Part shown: in pieces, positions 1 through 12,344 of the stretch
How the letters are laid out: every line of letters starts with the position of its first letter
Numbering within the stretch: the stretch's first letter is position 1
Origin: Candidatus Vampirococcus lugosii
GTDB taxonomy: Bacteria > Patescibacteriota > Gracilibacteria > Absconditabacterales > Absconditicoccaceae
NCBI RefSeq assembly: GCF_018420025.1
Contig: NZ_JAEDAM010000029.1
Location: 1-12,344 of the forward strand
Reading direction: 5' to 3'
Length of the DNA stretch: 12,344 nucleotides
The notes under the pieces: model-generated
Databases searched by the model: none
The model's input: the letters and a program-made list of their open reading frames with translations, nothing else
Told to the model about the DNA's origin: nothing
Translations under genes and position numbers: made by a program

Positions 1-2040
1 ACAATGTCAAATATCCACTTTACCATTAGACTTAAATACTATTTGAAATCTACTTTCATATTCTTCAGCACCTGCACTATTTCATTGTACTATTGTTCAT
101 TTTCTTGTAAAAGTTTTTTCATGACCAAGTTTAAGAGTAACTGGACTATATTTTCAAGAATTTACTTTAAAACTATTTTGAACATTTTTCCAATCTCAAT
201 CAACTGTAATAGTTTTATTATTTGGATCATATTTTATATTCCAATTATGATGTGTTGCACCTCATTTATAAGTTGTACTTTTTTTCTGCACTTCTAAATT
301 AACTTTTTCTTTCTTATTCCTTTTATTTACATCTTTCTTATCTTCTCAATTTCAATTAGATTTAGGTTTACATTCATAATATCATTGAACTTCTCAACAT
401 TCACAACTATCATGAGGAGGTCAACTAGTTACAGTTCATGATGCTTGCCATATACAATTAACTCCTGTTGTATCTTTTTTATTTGTATTTTTTTTATCTT
501 TTTTATTTCAAGTTATACCACCATCTGGACTAGTTGATTTACCTCAACCTTTTTCATTAATAGTTTCCAAAACCATAATTTCATAATTGATAAGTATCGG
601 TTCTAAGATATTCCAATAACTGAAATCTTTTGCAGCTTTTTTAATTTCACTTAATCCTTCCAATTTTTTTAACAATCATTCAATACCTTCATTTTTAAGT
701 TTTCAGTTTTGTTTAGATAATTCTTCCTCAACAAATGCATTATATACCAATTTATTTGATTCACTCAAATTTCAAACCTTACTATTTAATTCTTTCCTTA
801 AATTAGATAATTTATCTCATAAATTACTATCTCATAAATTACTATTATTTCAATTATTTCATCAATTACTATTATTTCAATCATTTCATTGATTATTATT
901 ATTAGTATAAGTTTTTAGAATATCTCTTAAATTAAACTCACAACTAATATCAGTATAACTATCCCAATTTTTATTAGACAAATTATATACTTCATCACAC
1001 CTTAAAATACAATCTTCTTCAGTTCTAACAGAATCATCATCAAATAATATTTTTGATGATGATTTTATTCTACAATTACGAGGAGGAGATACATTTTCAA
1101 TATCATTTTCATTTCAAGAATCTTTTTTATTCCAAGAACCATCATTTGTTGTAGTTTCTCATTTTCAAGGACAATAGCCATGTACTTTTTCATCACAAAC
1201 AACACATGATTTTAAATCATTATCAAAAATATATCAAAAATCACAAGATTCATGAATTCTTTCTTCTCAAATTTTAGTAAACTCTCAATTATTACAAACA
1301 AAATCTTGTTTTTTATAAGTAAGTCTAACTTCAGGATTATTAGATTTATCAACAATTTTAGTCGCTGTAAATACTGATCAATTAGGTACATTATAATTTT
1401 TACTAACACCTTGATTACTACCAATATCATGACTATTAAGTCAATATCAATCTATACTTGTTGGTCAACATCAATCTTCAATATTTGTAACAAATGAAAA
1501 TCAATCATCAGATATAGTATATCAAAAATCAAATTCAAACTTTATTTTTTCATTTGATGCTCTTTTAAGTTGTCAATCTTTAGTACATTGAAAAACTTTA
1601 GTTTTTATAATAGTTCATCATTTTACTTCAAATTTTTTAACAAGAGTTCTTACATATTCAGGTAATATAACTCTATCAATAACATATCAATCTATATTAG
1701 TACCCTGTGAACAACTATAATTTGTATCATCTCAAGGTAAAGCTATACAAGCATCAAAAGAAGGAGATAAAGTATATCAATTATTACATTCAATAATTTG
1801 TTCTTCTAATTTCCAATCATTCATTGGTGATAAAGTTGCTCTACATGAATACTTTCTTTCTATATTTCAATTTTGTATTTCTTTTTCTAATTTATGATAA
1901 CTTGTCCAAGTTTTATTAATATCTTCAGGTCTAGATTTTGGAAGATCTCAAAATCAAGAAATATTTGTTTCTGGACATTCTGCAAAAGAAAATCATAAAT
2001 ACAAAAACAATCATATAACAAATAAAAATATTTTTTTCAT
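1..2040 (-). CDS. Secreted cysteine-rich protein of unknown function with an N-terminal signal peptide. Partial: the C-terminus lies beyond the left edge of the window (680 codons visible, table 25).
   Basis: ATG at 2040-2038. I read all 680 minus-strand codons down to position 1 and found no TAA or TAG, but about 48 in-frame TGA by hand count. The N-terminus MKKIFLFVIGLFLYLGFSFA/ECPE looks like a classic signal peptide with an AxA-like cleavage site. Many Cys residues follow (for example CSQG, CGPT, CVVCDEKVHGYCPG, SCECGEVQGYYEC), plus a Gly/Asn-rich linker. I recognise no family. Confidence 0.8.
816..890 (-). repeat. Tandem direct repeats inside CDS 1..2040: a perfect 15-bp unit x2, overlapping a 27-bp unit x2. 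They encode a Gly/Asn/Ser-rich low-complexity linker.
   Basis: The plus-strand unit ctcataaattactat occurs at 816-830 and again at 831-845, both perfect. aattactattatttcaatTatttcatC (837-863) is repeated at 864-890 with 2 mismatches. Translated in table 25 this region reads ...NNNNQGNDGNNSNGGNNGNNSNLGDSNLGDK... Confidence 0.85.
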
Positions 2041-2042
2041 AA

Positions 2043-2066
2043 TAAATATATAAATATATAAATATA
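2043..2066. repeat. 8-bp AT microsatellite (taaatata x3 perfect, with a further 1.6 copies at 2073-2085), immediately upstream of the start codon of CDS 1..2040.
   Basis: Read directly: taaatata at 2043-2050, 2051-2058 and 2059-2066. It lies in the 157-bp gap between two minus-strand genes, so within the presumed promoter or 5' UTR. Confidence 0.6.
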
Positions 2067-2197
2067 TAATACTAAATATATAAATTTAATATTATTCTAT
2101 AAGTATAATTATTTTTTTTAAAATTTCAAATCTTTTATTTTATTATAAATATTTGATTAATTGAAAGATTTAGAAATTGTATATTACAAAGATGAGA

Positions 2198-3313
2198 TTA
2201 AAGTCTAATTTTAGTTGTATCCCAAGGTCTTCGTTCAGGATTTTCAATAGCCTTTTCTGTATTTTTAGTATCTGTATATAAATAATTATTATCAAGTAAA
2301 TTTTCAATATAATTAAATTTACGATGTAAAATTAAACTTGTTTCCGCCATTTGTTCAAAAACTCAATAATGATTAATATACATATTAATACTTTCTGCAA
2401 AATCTTCAAAAGGGTTTGTCATAGCATATCAACTTACAAAATCAAGACGAGATTTTCAAGATTTAGTAGTATCTTCTGAAAGCCATGAATATGAATAAAA
2501 ATCTATAGAAGGATCATCCAAATAAAATTTTTTCTTCCCAAATTCTGTAAAATTAGAATCTAATTTTCATCAACTTCATTTAATAACTCATAAATCAATT
2601 ATATGTCATAATTCATGTGTAAAAACTTCCATAAATTCTATTTTATTTGAAATTCATGGTAAATTAATAAGCATAGTATGATGACCTGCATATCATCTTC
2701 TTCAAGTTCATTTTTGATCAATTCTTAAAGACGACATTATATTTGAAATTTTTTCAGAACTATTTAAATATTCATCAATATTATTAATTATATATATAAT
2801 AATAGCTTTGTAATATAATCTTTGTGTATTAGAAAAATCACCTATAAAATGAGTAAAATCACAAACATAAAGATTTAAACTACAAATTCTATTTATATCA
2901 TTTTGAGTATATTTATTTTTTGCAGATGAATGTTCTTGTTTTATTGCTTCATTGAATATATAATATAGAAATCTTTGATTTTTTTGCTTTTCAAGTTCTT
3001 TTTCTTTAATTTTTTCTTGTATATTATTTTTTTCTTGATTTTCTTGTATATTTTCTTTATTTATTTTTTCATCAGATATATTTTTTTCAGAAATTTTTTC
3101 ATCTTGTTTATTATGTATTTCATTATTTATTTTTTTTTCATTTAATATATTTCTTTCAAATTTTTTATTAGTTAATAATTCATCCAAAACTCTATCATGC
3201 CTTTTATCAAAAGTTTTAACTCATACTTCAGGTACATACAAAATAAGTCAGTAAATAAAAACAAAACTTCAAAAAAATATTTTGGAAATAAAAATAAATA
3301 ATTTTGGCAACAT
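2198..3313 (-). CDS. Membrane-anchored zincin-type (HExxH) metallopeptidase, 371 aa, with a Lys/Glu/Asn-rich linker.
   Basis: ATG at 3313, TAA at 2200-2198, and no TAA/TAG in frame (checked triplet by triplet). The N-terminus MLPKLFIFISKIFFGSFVFIYGLILYV is a hydrophobic anchor. The HExxH motif FTHELGHIIDLG sits at 2603-2617, and the Gly in HELGH is a TGA codon. The downstream motif NPFEDFAESINMY resembles the Glu-ligand motif of gluzincin/MtfA-like peptidases. The standard-code ORF 2708..3187 is an internal fragment in the same frame. Confidence 0.8.
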
Positions 3314-3350
3314 AATTTTTTTTTAATTTTTAATATAATAAATTTAAATA

Positions 3351-4541
3351 TTATTTTAATTGTAAAATATCATAAAAGTCAGCATATCAATTTACTGATT
3401 TATACAATCAATCTTCAAATAAATCAATAAATCATATACTCTTTATATATTTATATATATCATCATTAAATTTTTTTTCAAATATCATTTTTGAAATAGT
3501 TTCATCAATTTTTATTATTTCATTTACTGGAACTAATCAATCATATCATTTATCACATTTATCACAAGAATTTTTATTAGCAAAATGTACAATAATATTT
3601 TTATCAATATTAGAAATTTCAAAATCATTTAAATTTATTTCTTTTTTTATACAACAATGATGACATAATTTTTTAACTAATTTTTGATAAATAACAAATT
3701 TTAAACCTGTAGCAATCAAATGATTTTGTATTTGCAATTGTTGAAGTCTACTAATTATTGATAATGCACTATTTGCATGTATGCTTCCAAAAACAATATG
3801 TCCTGTATTTGCTGTTTCTAAACAAATAGATGCAGTATCTTTATCTCTAATCTCTCATACTAATATAATATCTGGATCTTGTCTTAATATTCAATTTAAT
3901 CATTTTTGAAAAGTAAAATTTTCTTTTTTATCATTAGTTTTTCTATTAGTGACTTCAGATTGAATATATCCTGGTATAACATATTCAATCGGATCTTCCA
4001 ATGTAAAAATAGTTTTTTTATTACTATCAAATGTTCATAATATAGAATATAATGTTGTTGTTTTTCAACTTCAAGTACCACCAGCAACTAATACTAATCA
4101 ATTTTCCAAGTTTGAAATTGATTTTAATTTTTCCAAATTTTGTTTAGAAAACAATAAATTATCTATACTTATATGAGTTTGATCAGTAATAAGAATTCTC
4201 ATAACTAGATTCTCACCAAATATAGTTGGCATAGTAGATAATCTTAAATTTAATGAAACTGGTTTTCCTCAAAGATTTAAATTCATAGGTATTTTTCAAT
4301 CTTGAGGAATTCTTGTTTCATTAAAATCTAATCATGAATTGTTTTTCAAAACATTTAATAATTTATAATTTCTTTCATGAGTAATTTTTCAATAAGTTTT
4401 CATAACTCATGCTATTCTAAATCTAATTAATACTTCATTTTTAAATGGAGTTATATGTATATCAGAAGCATTATTTTTTAGTGCTAAAGAAACTATTTTT
4501 CTCAAAAATAAATTTGGATCAAAAGATGTATCTTTTATCAT
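3351..4541 (-). CDS. GspE/PilB/ComGA-family type II secretion / type IV pilus assembly ATPase. Compact form of 396 aa with no long N-terminal domain.
   Basis: ATG at 4541, TAA at 3353-3351, and every codon checked with no TAA/TAG. The Walker A motif LVAGGTGSGKTTTLY is at 4053-4085, and both the 4th and 6th residues of GGTGSGKT are TGA codons. Also present are the Asp/Walker B box RQDPDIILVGEIRD (Gly = TGA), the His box TGHIVFGSIHANSA, and the tetracysteine motif CHHCC...CDKCDKGYDG that is typical of GspE/PilB and absent from PilT. The standard-code ORF 3546..3737 is an in-frame fragment. Confidence 0.93.
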
Positions 4542-4581
4542 TAATTATATATTTTATATTTAAATAAAAATATACTTAAAT

Positions 4582-6351
4582 TTAATTAGATTTTCTATTA
4601 AATTTAAGATCTCATATTTTTATATATTCAGGTAATTTAATTATATTTCAAATTTGCAAATAAGCTCAAGATTCTTTAAAAAATCTTGAATTTAAATTTT
4701 TATTTCATTTATTAAAATCAATAATTTTATTAATTATATTAACAATATCATTATTTTTTTTAAATCAATAATTATTTTTTACAATATTCCATAAAGTATC
4801 TCAACTTTTTACTTTATAATCTATACTAGAAATATTTTCTTCTTCAATATTATTTTCATATACACTATCTTGTCTATCATAAGTTCATAAAGATTCTTGT
4901 GATTTTCATTCAACACTTTTTTCCTCTATATCATTTCTATATGTAGGAGGTGTTATTCTATAGCTAGGTACAGGTCTTTTATATCTACCATATTTACCAT
5001 AAGCAACTATTTCTTGTTCTGTTTTTTTTGCTTCTTTTTCTACTTCTATCTCTTTTTGTGATTTTGATTGAGATTTTTCAGATTTTTCATTTATATTATA
5101 ATCTAAATCTAAATTTTTTAAATAAAAATTTCATTGTTCATCTTTTGTCTTAAGTAAATATCTTCAAGAATTTACTACAACTTCTCAATTTCAAACATCA
5201 GCTCTTCATATTCAGAAATTATTCAACGACATATTTGATAAATCTTGTTTTACTCAAATATAACGAAGTGCTTTTATCAATCAAGAATCAGTTTCAATAC
5301 TATTTCAGATATCAATTTCATTTTCGTCAAAATTTATTTTTCAATTATAAAAAATCATTAATTCTTCATATACAATATCTATCAAATTATTTGTTAAAGT
5401 TATAGCTTGATCAAGATCTCACTTGTTTAATTTTTTGTATATATTTATAAAATCTTTTTTGTAAGAATTATCATTGTAATTTAATTCTAATACTCATAAA
5501 AATAGTTCTAATCTCTTAAATTTTTTACCATATTCTGTAAGATTCCATTCTTCATCAAAAGTATTATTCAAAATATTATCATTATCTACATTTCAAAAAG
5601 TACTAGCAACTAAATAAGTTTCATTAGTAATAATTGCTATATATTCAGAGTATGTAAATACTTCTTTTTCCTCATAAGAAGTATTACTGATATTATCATA
5701 TAATACTAATTTACTAGTAATTTCACTGTCGTTAAATCGTTTTTTATCTTCTTGAGTATGTAATGAATCCATTATTTTATTCAAAATCTCTATATTATAA
5801 AATCATTTTTTTCAAAATCTTGATCAATTTGATTTATTTTCTTGAAAATTTATAATATTTTTAATTTTGGAATATAAACTAATTCTATTTTCTAAATCTA
5901 CTAATGTCATTCATTCAGGCAAATTTAAAATCCATTCTTTAAATTCAGGAAATTTTTCTTTCAAAGAAAGAATTCTATTATTTTCTTTTATTAGATAATC
6001 CAATGAATTTTGATTTATACCCAAATTACTTCTTATATCTCTCAAAGATATTCAAACATTATCAATAATTTGATCAGTTTTATTTTTTTTATAAATTTCT
6101 AATTTTACAATTTCATCAATAAGATCGTAAAAAAATTTTGATAAATGTTCTTCATTTTCTCATAATGAATTTAAAATAAAATTTTTAAATTTTTGAATTT
6201 GACTTTTATTTGTCCAATCTATAGATTCCAAATCATAATTAAAATCGTATATAGACATTATGGGAGTAAAAAAATCTACCCAGTCTACAAATTCTATATT
6301 TTCATTAGATCTTTCATTTTCTTCTATTATATATTCAAAATTTTCTTTCAT
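4582..6351 (-). CDS. 589-aa protein of unknown function with a C-terminal LysM (peptidoglycan-binding) domain. No recognisable signal peptide or TM segment.
   Basis: ATG at 6351 with a TAA two codons upstream; TAA at 4584-4582; all 590 codons checked with no TAA/TAG. The C-terminal sequence YKVKSGDTLWNIVKNNYG...LQIGNIIKLP (about 4630-4822) matches the LysM pattern (x-V-x-x-GDTLW-x-I ... G-x-x-L-x-I/LP). The track ORFs 5593..5784 and 6160..6351 are in-frame fragments. The N-terminal ~500 aa is acidic and Asn-rich, and I recognise no family. Confidence 0.8.
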
Positions 6352-6500
6352 TTTTAAAATAAAAAAATAAATAATATATCTATAATATACATTATTTATT
6401 TTTTGTCAAAAAATCGTGTTTATTTTTGTTTAAACTTATCTTTGTAGAGTAAAATTTCTAAATTCTTGATCTAAACAAGGATTTGCAAGAAAATAAAGAT

Positions 6501-6537
6501 AGATTTGTGTACTACACAAATTTTATAATTTTATTTT
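6501..6537 (+). terminator. Weak AT-rich hairpin followed by a T-run, resembling an intrinsic terminator. T-rich flanks occur on both strands. It has no obvious upstream gene.
   Basis: The stem atttgtgt (6503-6510) pairs with acacaaat (6514-6521) around the loop act, and can be extended by A-T and G.U pairs to 10 bp. It is followed by tttataattttatttt. On the minus strand the same hairpin is followed by ctttattttctt. The stem is AT-rich with a 3-nt loop, so it could arise by chance in this composition. Confidence 0.25.
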
Positions 6538-8023: not shown

Positions 8024-10513
8024 ATGAAAACTAATATTAAATGTCCAGAGTGTCAAAATAGTTTTGAAATACAAGAGAATAAATTAGAAAAAGACATAGA
8101 ATGTCCTCATTGTTATAATGTTTTTTCTCCCAAAATGCAAGATAAAAATGAAATTTATCAAAAAAATAAAGAGTTTAAACCATATAAATCAAGTTATATT
8201 ATTTTTAATTCTTTTTTGTTATGGCTATGAATTTTGTCTGCAATTATTTCTCTTTTCTTAATATTTTTTTTAGGAAAAGTTTTTGCTATATTGTTTATTG
8301 TTTCTTTTATAATATGAGCAATAGGTTTTTGGTTGGTAAATATAATGTATGATAAAGAAAGATATTTAATAAAAGATAATGAAATTATTTATTGATATTG
8401 AACATTATTTCAAGATAATGAAGTAAAATTAAATTTTAAAAAAATAGTGCAAGTAAAAACTACTTTATGATTTTTTCAATGGAATATTTTTGGTACTTGA
8501 ACTGTTATTATAAAATCTGCATGAAGTGGTACTACAAATGTAAATATATATAATGTAAAAAATCCACTTCAATTACATAATTTAATACATTCTGTTATGA
8601 AAGAAAATGGATTCAATCTTTCAAAAGAAAAATTAGTTCAGGAAGCTAAACCACATACTTTATGAGTTATATTAGATATTTTAGGTAAATATTTGTGAAT
8701 TATAATATTTATTCTTGTACCATTAATTCCAGCAATATTAGATATAGATAATCAAGTAAATTTAATAATAAATTTATGATTTATTTTAATTTTATTACTT
8801 ACAGTTATTATACCTACAATATTTTTGTATTTGGATACGAAAAGAAGATATTATAGAGTTTTTACTGATGCAGTATATTTTACTGATTGATTTTTGACTA
8901 GAAGATATAGTTTTATTCCTTTTGAAAACATTTCTGATGTTGCTAATGATCAAAATTTTTTGGAAAAAATATTTGGTATTCATGATGTAAGATTAAGTTG
9001 ACAATGAAGTAATAATCAATTTATATTCAAAAATATTCTTTATTGAGAAATTATGATGGAGAATATAAGATATCTTAAAGATAAAACTATTTTATCAACT
9101 AGTTCTCAAAAAAATAATTTTGAACAAAAAGAAAAATCTTGAAATCTTGTTGAAGAAAATTGAAATATTGATAATGAAATAGATGAACAAATATGATATA
9201 AAAATTACTTGGAAGAAGCTTTGGATTATGATAAATCTTTTGAAGCAAGATATAAAATGGATATGTTGAAAAGTATTGCATCTACTATTCCATTTATTAT
9301 TATTCCTCCTGTATTTATAATACTTTTAATTTACAAAATAATAATTGTAAAATCATATGATTTTGTAGTAAAAAAAGATAGTATAGAAAGTCAATTTAGT
9401 TTTCTTAGCAATAAACAAGATATTTTTAGTATAGAAAGAATTACAAAACTTAATTTTGAAGAAAGTTTAATAGATAAATTATTTTGAACTTGTAGTATAA
9501 GATTTAGTTCAATTTGATCTTGATATGATATTGTTTTTAGAGACATAAAAAAAACAGAAAATTTATATCAAAATATTAAAAATAAATTATGACTTAAAGA
9601 AGATAATTTATTGAAAAAATTTGATATAAATTTTAATATAATTGAATATATTAAATCAGAAATATTAACAGTTATTACTTTTGTATCAATATTTATACCT
9701 TTAAGTATATTTTTAATTTTTTTTACTTATAGAATAGAAATATTTTTTTCTGTATTAATTTTATTTATTTTGATATTTCTTATCAAAATATTTTATCTTA
9801 AATATTATTATTCTTCAGATTGGTATTATCACAATATGTACAAAAATATGATTGAATCTATTAATTGAATAATTATTCAAAAAAAATCTTATTCATTGAT
9901 AAGATATTTAAAATGAATTAAAATAAAAAAATATCCATTTACTAATACTTGAAGTATTTATATTAATGTTGCTTGAGAACAAGTAATAAATACAAATAAC
10001 TGAAATTATGTAAAATCAAATTATATACAGATAGATTTTATTAAAAATGTTTTTGAAAAACTTAATCAAATTGATCAATTATTATCAGTAAATAAATTAG
10101 ATACTACTGAATTAAAAAATGATAAACCTTGTATATATAATTCATTAGTTCCTTTATTTATAGTTTTATTTATTTTGTGTGCTGTTTTAATGTTGCTTGA
10201 TTTAATATTATGAATTTTATGATTAATTATTTCAATGATTATAATATTTTTGATACGATGGTATATTAAAATACAATTTTTTAGTATTCAAAAAGATAGA
10301 GTATTATATAGTTATTGAATAATATATAAAAAATATCATAGTATTAGATTAGATAGAATAGATTTTGTTGAATCATATCAATGATTAATAAATAAAATAT
10401 TTAAGAATTGAAATGTTTATATATATACTATATGAAGTTCAAAAACAGAAATGACTGTCAATAATATTGATGATTATCAAGAATTTTATCAAAAATTAAA
10501 GGATTATAAATAA
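8024..10513 (+). CDS. 829-aa polytopic membrane protein: an N-terminal MJ0042-type CxxC...CxxC zinc ribbon followed by five repeated modules, each a TM segment plus a bPH_2/DUF304 (YdbS/YdbT-like bacterial PH) domain.
   Basis: ATG at 8024 and TAA at 10511-10513. I checked 8222-9209 codon by codon and read the rest sequentially; no TAA/TAG. The track ORFs 8024..8230, 9209..9487 and 9611..9868 are all fragments in this frame. The zinc ribbon is MKTNIKCPEC...IECPHC (8042-8113). Five modules each pair a hydrophobic stretch with a ~70-aa soluble domain ending in a Gly-rich strand: IIKSAGSG (8516-8530), VRLSGQGS (8996-9010), IRFSSIGSG (9509-9523), YINVAGE (9968-9979) and YIYTIGSS (10427-10441). Module 2 reads YRVFTDAVYFTDGFLTRRYSFIPFENISDVANDQNFLEKIFGIHDVRLSGQGS, which fits the DUF304/bPH_2 consensus well. 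Confidence 0.85.
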
Positions 10514-10559: not shown

Positions 10560-11678
10560 ATGTTAAAAATTCAAAAACTGAAATTACAAAATATAGATAA
10601 TACTGCTGAAAATATTGAAATAATATGAAAACTTTTTCCACAAGTAATTACTGAAAAAGAAGATGAAAATTGAAAAATAATTAAAGCAATAGATTTTGAT
10701 TTATTAAAACAAGTACTTTCCAAAGATTTGGTAGAAGATAATAATGAAAGATATCAATTAAACCGACCTTGAAAAAAAGCAAGTATTCTCAAAGCTAATA
10801 CTCCTATAAACAAAACTTTAAGACCTGCACCAGATGAAAGTGTAAATTTTGATAATACTGAAAATCTTTATATTGAATGAGATAATTTTGAAGTATTAAA
10901 AATTTTACAAGAATCATATTTATGAAAAGTTAAGATGATTTATATAGATCCACCATACAATACTGGTCAAGATTTTGTTTACAAAGATAATTTCAAAAAA
11001 TCAAAAGATGATTATGAAGATGATTTATGAGTAGAAGATGAAGAGTGATGAAAGTTATTTAAAAATACAGATACTAATTGAAGATTTCATAGTGATTGGC
11101 TAAGTATGATGTATGAAAGACTAGTTGTTGCTAGAGATTTATTAAAAGATGATTGAGTTATTTTTATGAGTATAGATGATAATGAAGTTCATAATCTAAG
11201 AAAAATTGCTGATGAGATTTTTGGAGAGGAGAATTGTGCATGAGTTATAACTATTTTAAAATGAAATGCACAAAATGATGCTGAAAATATACAAGTTAAT
11301 CATGAATATGTTTTATGTTATATTAAAAATAATATTAAAATAAGAAATATAAAATCTGAAAAAATTTTAGTTTTCAAAGATCAAAAATGATATTATTATA
11401 AATGAAGTTGAATAACAACTGGATGAGAATGATGAACATTAAAATCAAGACCTAATTTAGGTTGGACACTATATTATAATCCAACTACTTGAGATAAAAT
11501 AATTAAAAATGATTATAATAAAGAATTAATAAATACAAGTAATGATGAAGAAATTATATATGAAAACGACAATATATTATTACAAAAATGATATAGAATT
11601 ATTAGAGCCCCTAAAAAAATGAAATGAATTATGATGTTGGACTTGGCAATTTTCAAAAGCAAAAGATGAGCTTTATAA
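10560..11678 (+). CDS. mod: Beta-class N6-adenine DNA methyltransferase (type III Mod-like), fragment 1 of 2: N-terminal region, catalytic motif IV and most of the target-recognition region. The frame ends at a TAA 57 nt after an A7 tract.
   Basis: ATG at 10560. The sequence ...TENLYIEGDNFEVLKILQESYLGKVKMIYIDPPYNTGQDFVYKDNF contains DPPY at 10947-10958. It continues GRFHSDWLSMMYERLVVARDLLKDDGVIFMSIDDNEVHNLRKIADEIFGEEN. The conserved Gly of KDDGVIF is TGA at 11154-11156, while the conserved Trp of HSDWL is TGG at 11097-11099. RPNLGWTLYYNPTTGDKI is typical of this family. The frame-0 stop is TAA at 11676-11678. Confidence 0.9.
11613..11619 (+). repeat. A7 homopolymer at the exact point where the methyltransferase reading frame switches.
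   Basis: The sequence is gcc cct aaaaaaa tga aat gaa. With 7 A the upstream frame runs into ...MKGIMMLDLAIFKSKRGAL* and stops. With 6 A it reads APKK-GNELGCWTWQFSKAKDEL..., joining the two family-typical halves. Confidence 0.9.
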
Positions 11679-12344
11679 TTTATGAATAACCGATAGTTTT
11701 AATATTTATAAAAAAGAATATATAAATGAAAAATATGTTATAAAGGAAAATGATAAATTATATTTTATAAAAAATAAAGAATTTCCTATTAAATCTTTTA
11801 TTGAGATAAAAAGTTGAACTTGAACAACTAACTTAAAAGAATTGTTTAATAAATGAAAAGTATTTGATTATTCAAAAAATGAAAAAATGATTTTTGAATT
11901 AATATCTAGAGTAGAAATGAATAAAAACGACATAATCCTAGATTTCTTTTCTTGATCAGCAACAACAGCACATGCAGTAATGCAACTAAATGCAGAAGAT
12001 GATTGAAATAGAAAATTTATTATGGTACAAATTCCTGAAGCTACTGATGAAAAATCTGAAGCATACAAAGCTTGATACAAAAATATTTGTGAAATATGAA
12101 AAGAAAGAATTAGAAGAGCTGGGAAGAAAATATTGGAGGAGATGAAAGGACAAGATCTCTCGGCAAGCTCAAGATGACAAGAGTCTGTCATTTCGACCGA
12201 AACGAAGTGAAGTGGAGAAATCTCAAAACAAGATCCCTCGACTTCGCTCGAGATGACACAAGAAGAGAAATCTTTAGACATTTGATTTAGAGTTTACAAA
12301 GTAGATTCTAGTAATATAAAAGATGTTTATTTTCATCCAAATGA
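11620..12344 (+). CDS. mod: Beta-class N6-adenine DNA methyltransferase (type III Mod-like), fragment 2 of 2, in the +1 frame. It contains the AdoMet-binding motif I and the C-terminal region, and continues beyond the right edge.
   Basis: This frame (positions congruent to 1 mod 3) is open from 11533 to the end of the window. A gene caller would probably start it at ATG 11542. It reads GNELGCWTWQFSKAKDELYNLGI...TNLKELFNKGKVFDYSKNEKMIFELISRVEMNKNDIILDFFSGSATTAHAVMQLNAEDDGNRKFIMVQIPE (motif I, DFFSGSATT, at 11941-11970) ...ICEIGKERIRRAGKKILEE...LDIGFRVYKVDSSNIKD. Motif IV lies before motif I, which is the beta permutation seen in type III Mod and some type II enzymes. Confidence 0.88.
12153..12258. 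repeat. Locally GC-rich composite element made of three related ~27-38-nt units in direct / inverted / direct orientation, embedded in frame in the methyltransferase linker. Possibly a miniature palindromic or mobile-like element.
   Basis: Unit A is agatctctcggcaagctcaagatgaca (12153-12179). Unit B is tgtcatttcgaccgaaacgaagtgaagtggagaaatct (12186-12223), whose reverse complement is agatttctccac...tcgaaatgaca. Unit C is agatccctcgacttcgctcgagatgaca (12231-12258). A and C are roughly 80% identical. The 3' end of A is complementary to the 5' end of B at 9 of 11 positions, and the 3' end of B to the 5' end of C at 9 of 12. The element is translated in frame as QDLSASSRGQESVISTETKGSGEISKQDPSTSLEMTQ. 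The lack of stops on the opposite strand creates the spurious 137-aa track ORF 11868..12281. Confidence 0.65.

Follow-up and report, generated by a model that had tools for sequence, protein, structure and literature searches.

TGTC-tagged palindromic hairpins inserted in frame in the Mod methyltransferase gene of a Gracilibacteria-like bacterium that reads TGA as glycine

A Type III Mod-like DNA methyltransferase gene lying at the end of a bacterial contig harbours an inserted segment of 108 bp, missing from every one of the 93 aligned homologue segments, whose three constituent units are a TGTC variant of the CGTC-tagged REP superfamily. We regard this segment as probably a trimer of CGTC/TGTC-tagged REP hairpins inserted in the Mod linker of a host where TGA encodes glycine, and likely a passenger there. 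In other genomes, the family of these units displays covariation along its stem, a bias towards extragenic positions and an association with GIY-YIG genes. The features described below belong to a stretch of 12,344 nucleotides, hereafter called the window:

10560..12344, + strand: gene of the Type III Mod-like N6/N4 DNA methyltransferase, host of the insertion (PF01555, EcoP15I Mod 4ZCF_A, homologues)
12151..12258, + strand: inserted segment, 108 bp or 36 codons, peptide QDLSASSRGQESVISTETKGSGEISKQDPSTSLEMT (linker alignment with 93 homologue segments, GC content)
12153-12179, - strand: unit U1, 27 nt, the most degenerate copy, forward letters AGATCTCTCGGCAAGCTCAAGATGACA (match to covariance model R1)
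12186-12223, + strand: unit U2, 38 nt, long-loop class, inverted, reverse complement AGATTTCTCCACTTCACTTCGTTTCGGTCGAAATGACA (match to covariance model R1)
12231-12258, - strand: unit U3, 28 nt, forward letters AGATCCCTCGACTTCGCTCGAGATGACA (match to covariance model R1)

The Mod linker and its three tagged units

The product of the host gene matches PF01555 (E = 2e-28) and the EcoP15I Mod 4ZCF_A (E = 1e-63), the latter alignment stopping at query residue 526, which is where the linker starts. Its homologues are 49-55% identical across 99% of the length, so that even the closest match reaches only 55% and no close orthologue was found. Read with TGA as glycine, the gene is truncated by the contig end and shows a frame shift at a run of seven A residues (11613-11619). 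The downstream, C-terminal Mod frame has no TAA or TAG in 241 codons, while its two alternatives have 15 and 17. Outside the insert the gene uses 13 in-frame TGA codons in this C-terminal frame, and its AT content there is like that of the host. This host belongs to a barely sampled lineage: once the organism's own translations were set aside, the best protein match was 51% identical and the best named one 45% (Ca. Gracilibacteria), while an apparent relative at 96% (P0122) was rejected as the identical DNA translated with code 4. A PilB-like ATPase is also encoded in the window, and its use as a query against metagenome contigs returned one 33%-identical locus only.

A preliminary description of this DNA had proposed an in-frame element adding some 36 residues between two conserved Mod blocks, at a place where the family would have only a short variable linker. 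The segment does lie between ERIRRAGKKI and LDIGFRVYK of this PF01555/EcoP15I-like Mod and comprises exactly 36 codons, and the alignment of Mod proteins suggested at the time as a check agrees with an insertion, the 36 codons being missing from 93 of 93 homologue segments. The linker of the family is not always short, however, since this block ranges from 26 to 73 residues across homologues and carries other inserts in some of them. Deletion of the 108 bp (12151-12258) leaves ...ILEEMKGQEEKSLDIGFRVYK, a block of 30 residues that compares with the 26-31 residues of short-linker homologues. A plain short linker is found in about 80 of the 93 segments; certain long linkers are low-complexity, coiled-coil-like sequence, and at three loci (L178, L179 and L180) the same linker contains long palindromes unrelated to ours, with folding energies of -40.5 kcal/mol (129 nt), -46.8 (108 nt) and -20.0, respectively. 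The inserted peptide is hydrophilic (GRAVY -0.89) and contains nine serines.

Owing to a direct repeat, ACAAGA at 12150-12155 and again at 12258-12263, the ends of the insert can be placed only to within 6 nt. This repeat was discarded as a target-site duplication, as repeats equal to or exceeding it occur at about 6% of control positions. A MITE-type duplication was likewise rejected for the family as a whole, the flanking direct repeats of 264 family clusters having a mean of 1.71 compared with 1.74 in the control.

The units themselves span 106 bp (12153-12258), and the range 12141-12270 originally assigned to the element was therefore slightly wide. The compositional shift that had been pointed out is real: these 106 bp have a GC content of 46.2%, whereas the window averages 20.5% (sd 5.8%; z = 4.4), which makes it the maximum of the contig, the highest value elsewhere being 34.9%. 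There are seven CpG in the 106 bp and 24 in the other 12.15 kb, a density about 33-fold higher, and the ATGAC motif occurs three times in the element (28 per kb) compared with 1.15 per kb in the remaining window.

The coordinates of U1, U2 and U3 bear out the proposed arrangement of three related units (direct, inverted, direct), and their shared ends AGATyyCTC...TCGArATGACA are real, with one mismatch in U1 (TCAAGATGACA). Written from the tag onwards, U1 reads TGTC / ATCTTGAGC..CCGAGAGAT / CT on the - strand, U2 reads TGTC / ATTTC-GA-C [CGAAA CGAAG TGAAG T] G-GA-GAAAT / CT on the + strand, and U3 reads TGTC / ATCTC-GA-G CGAAGT C-GA-GGGAT / CT on the - strand. Common to all three are the TGTC tag, a stem starting with A-T and T-A, the GA...GA positions and a C following the stem, whereas the loops obtained by inspection under the R1 stem measure 5 nt in U1, 6 nt in U3 and 16 nt in U2. 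The spacers are 6 nt (U1-U2) and 7 nt (U2-U3) long, U2 and U3 forming across the second one a dimer with the tags outside. The mutual complementarity described for neighbouring units is there as well, in arms of 16 nt (88%) and 11 nt (82%), although folding of the whole region improves only modestly on shuffled sequences (z = -1.9 and -1.5).

Two in-frame TGA codons fall within the element, one in the U2 loop (12208-12210), at a position that is TGA or TGG in the nearest relatives too, and the other (12175-12177) in the ATGACA end of U1, through which the Mod frame runs as AGA-TGA-CAA. The idea that such an element can be coding sequence only where TGA is a sense codon has thus held up, as the Mod frame would end prematurely in a standard-code host, at a codon placed where the unit is most conserved. 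Neither TAA nor TAG occurs in any of the six frames of the element; this is a property of the element and no evidence for selection.

A dispersed hairpin family and its GIY-YIG neighbours

The family pattern AGATYYCTC-N(8-22)-TCGARATGACA is present in at least 120 genome stretches from most bacterial phyla, from Nitrospirota to Patescibacteria, and in 53 viral contigs. Among the matches listed, unit lengths peak at 28, 33 and 38 nt, which correspond to one to three pentamers; at the outer variable stem pair, 188 units have T..A, 44 have C..G and a single one has a mismatch; and 16% of the units lie within long ORFs, compared with 74% of random positions. In 64 distinct 28-mers, 97.9% of the cells are paired and the A-T/T-A start is invariable (64/64), with 65 double-sided changes against 18.6 +/- 3.2 in shuffled sets, none of 500 shuffles equalling the observed value; controls in which the pairing was slid collapse. 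Allowing the extra stem types TCC, CCC, TCT, TGC and CCT brings the total to 250 units, versus 0-3 in shuffles. Wherever units occur as pairs in these genome loci (at least 120), the tags are outside in 48 cases and inside in 11, and 15 pairs are in tandem.

A covariance model (R1) built from other genomes only detects the three units of the window: U3 with 41.9 bits (E = 3.2e-8), U2 with 36.8 bits (E = 4.6e-7) and U1 with 25.6 bits (E = 1.7e-4), the next-best match in the window having an E-value of 1.1. Neither the model nor pattern searches found further copies in the 12.3 kb, where the units form a single cluster, and no unit occurs in 21 kb of the nearest named genome of the Gracilibacteria. 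U1 is identical at 24 of 28 positions to the nearest units elsewhere, and U2 at 36 of 38 to a unit in a Clostridia MAG and at 31 of 38 to a unit in a Fischerella plasmid, which is likewise paired with a short unit. U3 coincides at 27 of 28 positions with units in two viral contigs (L031 and L043), the sole difference being a C to T change that results in a G-T wobble. Where the units depart from their nearest relatives, the change is from GC to AT, as expected in an AT-rich host. The dimer of a long and a short unit with the tags outside also occurs in a Flavobacteriales locus (L095) and in plasmids of Fischerella and Tolypothrix.

BLAST of the element against plasmids returned two cyanobacterial units together with chance matches, and against phages one match at chance level only. 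We presume that the units may be the same as some of the small dispersed repeat (SDR) families described in cyanobacteria by Elhai et al. in 2008. An Rfam search of positions 11900-12344 (E <= 10) gave only noise (snoRNA models, 16-21 bits), and a literature search with peptide fragments and DNA words of the units only primers and unrelated words. The concatenated six-frame peptide found, among 5.8 billion proteins, just the window's own fragment P0241, in a search that is insensitive for units of 9-12 residues.

The association of this kind of hairpin with GIY-YIG genes was already published in 2025 (PMC11893778), and so is not a new discovery. Chenal et al. reported that NTS/SRM hairpins (SRM for Ssn-related motifs, the present name of this kind of hairpin) are bound and cut as ssDNA by the small GIY-YIG Ssn nucleases, with a GTC on the 5' side of the palindrome and a C directly behind it as cleavage and binding determinants in N. 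meningitidis, and with a gene layout of NTS-ssnA-NTS (PMC11893778). In our data, tagged hairpins are found near the gene in 10 of 10 viral loci that were picked solely by GIY-YIG protein similarity, and under a strict definition their density is 4.4 per kb within 200 nt of the GIY-YIG gene, against 0.12 per kb beyond. Units of the type present in the window, hereafter GA-type, stand on both sides of a GIY-YIG gene in two loci (L096 and L186), whereas in L095 a GA-type dimer directly precedes the gene. The three genes are about 40% identical to those of L184 and L185, which have canonical NTS-like flanks; canonical CCA tails are restricted to L184, L185, L189 and L192. The ORF of L095 carries a leader that reads VISSVVEKS...FSRNDN...FARNDN, a likely example of the spurious protein sequence that such units may generate. 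No specific NCBIfam or PDB family was found for the small GIY-YIG proteins, and no GIY-YIG ORF in the 12.3-kb window.

The published SRM pattern, HGTCWYN(0-2)YYVSBRHN(0-5)WNVSBRGN(0-2)RNCYNB (PMC11893778), matches none of U1, U2 and U3, and its failure comes right after HGTCWY and YYVS, at the G·A positions.

Origin and persistence of the insertion

Each unit would act as a hairpin of one strand of ssDNA, with an unpaired TGTC tag and a stem in which A-T and T-A are followed by three covarying pairs, then by a tandem G·A/A·G mismatch and one more covarying pair; one to three CGNAG pentamers make up the loop, and a C comes right after the stem. In other bacteria, Ssn nucleases, which are small single-domain GIY-YIG proteins, bind hairpins of this kind and cleave them a few nucleotides to the 5' side of the tag, and the location of nuclease genes between inverted repeat copies, in an IS-like layout, suggests the most likely route of multiplication. 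We know of no transposition mechanism demonstrated for the CGTC/TGTC-tagged class in any organism. From these data we infer that an Ssn-type nuclease or some other enzyme moved the element to its present site, in a cell where TGA was presumably already a sense codon.

The element in the Mod gene is most likely a passenger and seems to be neutral for Mod. The site is a linker of variable length, putatively exposed to solvent, directly behind the methyltransferase core, and the element would have survived there because the site tolerates insertions, because its length is a multiple of three, because its GC-rich units lack TAA and TAG in every frame and because in this host the TGA of the conserved ATGACA end codes for an amino acid. 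The frameshift at the A7 run implies that Mod is possibly inactive, in which case the tolerance of the insert would be of little informative value.

An alternative that we judge unlikely is that the hairpin was selected for a function in the mod-res operon rather than merely carried along. Either it would be an RNA or DNA structure within the gene, with an effect on the stability of the mRNA or on pausing or attenuation ahead of the C-terminal domain and res, or it would be a cleavage site in ssDNA, which would restrict the transfer of restriction-modification genes by transformation. The unrelated long palindromes in the same linker of L178, L179 and L180 speak for selection, as does the little AT drift of U2 and U3, identical at 36/38 and 27/28 positions to units of GC-richer organisms. 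In Neisseria, moreover, NTS repeats that flank a gene reduce its uptake by transformation (PMC11893778), and a PilB-like ATPase is encoded in the window. However, the plain short linker of about 80 of the 93 segments indicates that the function needs no hairpin, and the linker inserts represent different repeat families, which fits a permissive site sampled by the repeats of each genome, as for the RPEs of Rickettsia. The marginal fold of the whole region and the strongly extragenic character of the family elsewhere also argue against selection.

The insert might also have been in the gene already when this was acquired horizontally from a GC-richer donor with the standard code, and it would then be uninformative on the mobility of the repeats in a code-25 cell. 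The frequent transfer of restriction-modification genes, the absence of a close Mod orthologue, a GC content far above that of the host and the near identity of the units to those of Clostridia and viral contigs would all agree with such a history. Yet the TGA codons of U1 (AGA-TGA-CAA) and of the U2 loop would truncate Mod in that donor, and the remaining gene has 13 in-frame TGA in its C-terminal frame and host-like AT content, which renders this possibility very improbable. An assembly artefact, where a foreign GC-rich fragment was joined to an AT-rich contig, appears extremely improbable. The foreign composition of the element and its position 86 bp from the contig end would be compatible with a chimeric join, and the two independent Logan contigs of the organism cover only window positions 2102-6528. 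But the reading frame of Mod is the same before and after the element, which adds precisely 36 codons, the differences between the units and their relatives run from GC to AT as expected in this host, and recovery of the conserved block LDIGFRVYKVDSSN downstream would be unexpected for a chimera. Finally, an ordinary lineage-specific linker resembling the repeats by chance has a negligible probability, since, for all the variability of this linker and the plain low-complexity sequence of certain long ones, it is already contradicted by the E-values of the three neighbouring units (3e-8 to 2e-4), the sole ones of the window, by identities of 36/38 and 27/28 to units in unrelated phyla, and by the GC (z = 4.4) and CpG (33-fold) enrichments.

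The element extends the tagged-REP/Ssn-related hairpins to a Gracilibacteria-like genome with 20% GC and TGA recoded as Gly; the literature searched contained no equivalent in code-25 lineages. What is new is the presence of such hairpins in a code-25 host, with two in-frame TGA read as glycine, and the tandem G·A mismatches of the stem together with a pentamer-built loop and no match to the published SRM pattern. In-frame REP/RPE insertions, one of them in a DNA methyltransferase, and the GIY-YIG link were already published, and the present case is therefore an extension and not a new principle. It offers a natural example of a change in the genetic code that would alter which selfish insertions genes survive, and it indicates that the current SRM pattern overlooks a large and widely distributed variant. 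On the practical side, units of 28-40 nt that are open in six frames would give rise to peptides such as '...SVEMT / ...RNDK / VISSE... / SFRAK...' in spurious ORFs and false N-terminal extensions, which fits the earlier suggestion that these repeats are a source of spurious hypothetical proteins in other bacteria; recognition of the units would avert such mis-annotation and account for odd GC-rich islands in AT-rich MAGs.

A broader proposal, which we put forward only as a tentative one, is that the GA-type TGTC hairpins, with their tandem G·A mismatch, pentamer-built loops (28/33/38 nt) and CTC tail, constitute a branch of their own within the Ssn/SRM system, spread across bacteria at large and carried by phages but missed by the pattern, which is or was recently mobile in a TGA-recoded CPR bacterium. 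If this were true, TGA recoding would take away the sole stop that these elements carry, leaving code-25 and code-4 lineages unusually open to their insertion within genes, and the repeated invasion of the Mod linker by hairpins of unrelated families could go beyond tolerance, for instance towards a control of restriction-modification transfer at the ssDNA level.

Comparison with known systems

The GTAG REP/REPIN-RAYT system (TnpA-REP, Y1) also consists of short tagged ssDNA hairpins that form inverted dimers and of a small nuclease gene flanked by the repeats. Its tag is GTAG and its enzyme belongs to the HUH/Y1 class, whereas the present hairpins carry TGTC and are associated with enzymes of the GIY-YIG class.

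Rickettsia palindromic elements (RPE) were reportedly described as in-frame insertions in ORFs by Ogata et al. in 2000 and 2002. The original analogy of our element to these selfish repeats was essentially right: it is a palindromic repeat that lies in frame in a conserved protein, at a site that is exposed and permissive, it encodes a hydrophilic peptide, and it combines the TGTC tag and the A-T/T-A stem start with an enrichment in ATGAC, a motif characteristic of RPE-4/6/7 (Matsutani et al. 2013, PMC3767692). RPEs, however, are defined in Rickettsia and are typically elements with a consensus of ~100-150 bp, in another host with another genetic code. At most, the window element and the RPEs belong to the same superfamily, and the element does not belong to an RPE family.

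With the NTS/SRM hairpins, the units share an oriented hairpin of 20-50 nt, and the GTC 5' of the palindrome and the C right after it are present in U1, U2 and U3. GA-type units, moreover, flank (L096, L186) or precede (L095) single-domain GIY-YIG genes. On the other hand, the units of the window escape the SRM pattern, and its 12.3 kb contain no ssn gene.

The closest parallel is found in the CGTC-tagged REPs, a superfamily of four families (CGTC-1 to -4) that includes Neisseria dRS3 and RPE-6/RPE-4 of R. conorii (Di Nocera, De Gregorio & Rocco 2013, PMC3733652). They are defined by a CGTC, often TGTC, tag, a stem of 8-9 bp with A-T and T-A as first pairs, a loop of 4-5 nt, with other lengths in certain families, and a tail that is mostly CCA (PMC3733652). 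Reported from five phyla, their many dispersed and mostly extragenic copies are predominantly tags-outside ('HH') dimers, and some in-frame intragenic copies are on record, one of them in an adenine-specific DNA methyltransferase; within genes, dimers or groups encode 20-30 residues and clusters 43-82 (PMC3733652). The units of the window agree with them in the TGTC tag at one end of each unit, the A-T/T-A stem start, a size of ~28 nt, a short unpaired tail and the tags-outside dimer of U2 and U3, and the GA-type family in being mostly extragenic with occasional in-frame copies within real genes. In contrast to the 8-9 continuous pairs of the REPs, the GA-type stem has five Watson-Crick pairs, a tandem G·A/A·G and one further pair; its loop, 6 to 16 nt instead of 4-5 nt, is assembled from one to three CGNAG pentamers; and the tail, in the units of the window and in the whole GA-type family, is CT(C/T) instead of CCA. 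The GA-type family is also found in many more phyla, together with viral contigs, and its host in this instance is a code-25, Gracilibacteria-like organism with a GC content of 20%.

A three-unit element in an AT-rich contig

The preliminary description had pointed to a GC-rich insert in a very AT-rich background, and this was borne out: the element has a GC content of 46% over 106 bp (z = 4.4, the contig maximum), against 20.5% for the whole 12,344-bp contig, and contains 7 of the 31 CpG of the window. Its proposed architecture of three related units, arranged direct, inverted and direct and sharing the ends AGATyyCTC...TCGArATGACA, was likewise found.

Features of the window
12153-12179, direct: unit U1
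12186-12223, inverted: unit U2
12231-12258, direct: unit U3
10560 to contig end: Type III Mod-like methyltransferase (PF01555, E = 2e-28; EcoP15I Mod 4ZCF, E = 1e-63)

For each of the three units, the strand with the unpaired TGTC end (the tag) is the better-folding one. The region as a whole folds only marginally better than shuffles. No Rfam family was found in the element region, and pattern and covariance-model searches detected no further copies of the unit within the window.

Gly must be the reading of TGA in this contig. The motif GGTGSGKTT of a PilB-like ATPase, as well as HELGH and HEKGH in two metalloproteases, appear under this reading, and the gene calls on record also have Gly at TGA positions. 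Among named relatives of the PilB-like ATPase, the closest come from Candidatus Gracilibacteria (45%) and Absconditabacteria (40%), and the protein search with this ATPase shows a sparse sampling of the source lineage; a 21-kb portion of the nearest named Gracilibacteria genome contains no unit.

Two Logan assemblies, SRR13241708 and SRR13241709, hold contigs whose DNA is 100% identical to window 2102-6528, and both terminate at position 2102. Their proteins are stored under code 4 (TGA = Trp), and one gene is therefore split into two protein clusters that are 96% identical. At window 1-2085 (-) there is a large, secreted-looking Cys/Gly-rich ORF, truncated by the contig end, with an Asn/Gly low-complexity tract, NNNNQGNDGNNSNGGNNGNNSN; TGA encodes many of its Gly.

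The methyltransferase linker

The Mod protein is 49-55% identical to hundreds of homologues. Its frame changes at an A7 run (11613-11619): the upstream frame meets a stop at 11675, and the downstream one, where the motifs are perfectly conserved, runs without a stop through 241 codons to the contig end; the other two frames contain 15 and 17 stops. Behind this change may lie an error in sequencing or assembly, a recent loss of activity, or phase variation of a Type III mod gene through its homopolymer. The top-scoring homologue, from the Bathymodiolus platifrons methanotrophic gill symbiont (1005 aa, partial), consists of two Mod copies fused head-to-tail in one ORF, with differing target-recognition regions.

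An in-frame insertion of about 36 residues had been proposed, and an alignment of 93 homologue segments, from block ERIRRAGKKI to LDIGFRVYK, agrees with it. The segment spans 26-73 residues in the homologues, commonly 41, 33 or 31, and 66 in the window. Removal of 12151-12258 (108 bp, 36 codons) leaves ERIRRAGKKILEEMKGQEEKSLDIGFRVYK, 30 residues resembling the short-linker homologues, and the inserted peptide, which is hydrophilic and Ser-rich, is present in none of the 93 segments. The EcoP15I alignment stops exactly at the linker start.

Several other Mod homologues show repeat-like peptides in long linkers. The DNA of three of them was examined and proved palindromic in every case, at exactly the linker of the window insert; example peptides are TKGTKKHEKK...SCISWQ and NQGNQENQGSDN.

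Linker palindromes in other Mod homologues
L178, gene 1605-3662: -40.5 kcal/mol
L179, gene 3001-4956: -46.8 kcal/mol
L180, gene 83-2089: -20.0 kcal/mol

These palindromes come from unrelated repeat families, which makes the linker a place where hairpin repeats have landed repeatedly and where insertions are tolerated.

A widespread hairpin family and neighbouring GIY-YIG genes

The wider family was collected with a pattern drawn from the ends of the window units, so the conservation of those ends is by construction; covariation, length classes and extra stem types are free of this circularity. The pattern matches 53 viral contigs and at least 120 stretches of bacterial contigs (one genome per species). 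The matches listed come from Nitrospirota, Clostridia, Bacteroidota, Acidobacteriota, Desulfobacterota, Verrucomicrobia, Planctomycetota, Chloroflexota, Actinomycetota, Cyanobacteria (plasmids) and Patescibacteria, the latter including Peribacteria, Saccharibacteria and Uhrbacteria. Among the matches listed (L001-L173), unit lengths cluster at 28, 33 and 38 nt, reflecting an interior of one, two or three CTNCG pentamers, and a second series has 36 and 40 nt. These classes may stem from slippage or from a need for recognition. Long units also pair with short ones, giving heterodimers.

On the reverse strand, the units follow the plan TGTC | AT yyy GA N ... N' GA rrr AT | CT, with a tandem G·A/A·G mismatch on the TGTC strand. 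Among the matches listed, yyy and rrr covary almost perfectly (T..A 188, C..G 44, one mismatch), N and N' form a covarying pair too, and the stem types TCC, CCC, TCT, TGC and CCT raise the total to 250 units, against 0-3 in shuffles. In 64 distinct 28-mers from the same matches, defined without any pairing requirement, 97.9% of cells are paired and 65 double-sided changes occur, compared with 18.6 +/- 3.2 in shuffles (0/500 reach it); slid controls collapse. Units lie inside long ORFs in 16% of cases, versus 74% for random positions, and their pairs mostly have the tags outside (48, versus 11 and 15 of the other kinds), again among the matches listed. Neither conservation beyond the unit borders nor a target-site duplication was found in the family, and the ACAAGA repeat on either side of the window insert does not stand out against controls. 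In some contigs, as in L021 (12, 213, 414), L071 (1632, 1831) and L115 (2411, 2645, 2882), units form tandem series spaced about 200-235 nt apart, within larger composite repeats that combine several kinds of tagged hairpin (BIME- or NIME-like arrays).

A covariance model, R1, trained only on the 64 foreign 28-mers recovers U3 (E = 3.2e-8), U2 (E = 4.6e-7) and U1 (E = 1.7e-4) on the expected strands; the next-best match in the window has E = 1.1. Among the matches listed, the closest relative of U2 is in a Clostridia MAG (36/38), that of U3 in two viral contigs (27/28), and those of U1 in several places (24/28). A long unit, short spacer and short unit with tags outside also occur in a Flavobacteriales MAG and in Fischerella and Tolypothrix plasmids, where these dimers are intergenic. 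U1, U2 and U3 belong to this widespread tagged hairpin family. The best sub-threshold R1 match, at window 9117-9139 (+) (ATTTTGA-N7-GAAAAATCT, 9 bits, E = 1.1, no tag), is probably a random match in AT-rich sequence, though it may represent a decayed unit.

In the loci selected by their repeats, two of three small GIY-YIG ORFs adjoin units: identical inverted units lie on both sides of the gene in L096 (6376-6886), and a unit dimer just upstream of it in L095 (1435-1915), whose gene call would gain a false N-terminal extension from the repeats (VISSVVEKS...FSRNDN...FARNDN). Ten viral loci (L183-L192) were then picked solely by similarity to these GIY-YIG proteins, and all ten have tagged hairpins near the gene, with a density under a strict definition of 4.4 per kb within 200 nt versus 0.12 per kb beyond. 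Inverted copies flank the gene in most of the loci with such genes. Some of the ten (L184, L185) carry canonical NTS-like repeats with CCA tails, and another (L186) carries units with the tandem G·A mismatch of the window (R1, E = 6e-6), an association that would tie this GA-type variant to the same system.

Origin of the element and known tagged repeats

The element consists of three tagged REP/SRM-type hairpins inserted in a permissive linker, and it is most probably a passenger. Where U2 and U3 differ from their nearest neighbours, the changes go from GC to AT, the sole one in U3 turning a C-G pair into a T·G wobble; such limited drift towards AT hints at a recent event or at a constraint on the hairpins. 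A selected intragenic hairpin is the likeliest of four alternatives, followed by transfer of the gene, element included, from a standard-code donor. TAA and TAG are absent from all six frames of the element, TGA is the only stop possible in the units, and the conserved ATGACA end of U1 is read in the Mod frame as AGA-TGA-CAA. In a standard-code host this would truncate Mod, as the preliminary description had anticipated in restricting the coding element to TGA-sense hosts, and the insertion therefore most likely took place in a cell where TGA was a sense codon, unless the gene had by then lost its function. An assembly chimera ranks third, and chance is the least likely explanation.

CGTC-tagged REPs have a CGTC, often TGTC, tag, an 8-9-bp stem opening with A-T and T-A, a loop of 4-5 nt and a short tail, mostly CCA; they form mostly tags-outside dimers and lack a dedicated transposase (PMC3733652). 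They include Neisseria dRS3 (CGTC-1) and, in R. conorii, RPE-6 and RPE-4 (CGTC-1 and CGTC-4), and the in-frame intragenic copies on record include a dimer within an adenine-specific DNA methyltransferase (Di Nocera et al. 2013, PMC3733652). The signature of RPE-4/6/7 is ATGAC (Matsutani et al. 2013, PMC3767692), present three times in the 106 bp of the element versus 1.15 per kb in the rest of the window. The earlier comparison with selfish Rickettsia palindromic elements is supported, at the level of this superfamily.

NTS and SRM hairpins are the sites of Ssn proteins, single-domain GIY-YIG nucleases. These enzymes bind the hairpin in ssDNA form only, and their cut falls a few nucleotides to its 5' side; their genes are typically repeat-flanked, in an IS-like layout, and in N. 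meningitidis they reduce transformation by NTS-bearing DNA (Chenal et al. 2025, PMC11893778). Cleavage depends on the trinucleotide 5' of the palindrome, whereas for binding it is the C directly after it that matters (PMC11893778); both determinants are kept in U1, U2 and U3. The published degenerate SRM search pattern matches none of the three units. The tagged REP/SRM kind, its GIY-YIG association, its in-frame insertions and even one in a DNA methyltransferase are thus already known. What is new here is a host with a recoded stop codon, and a variant with a G·A stem, pentamer loops and a CTC tail that current search patterns miss.
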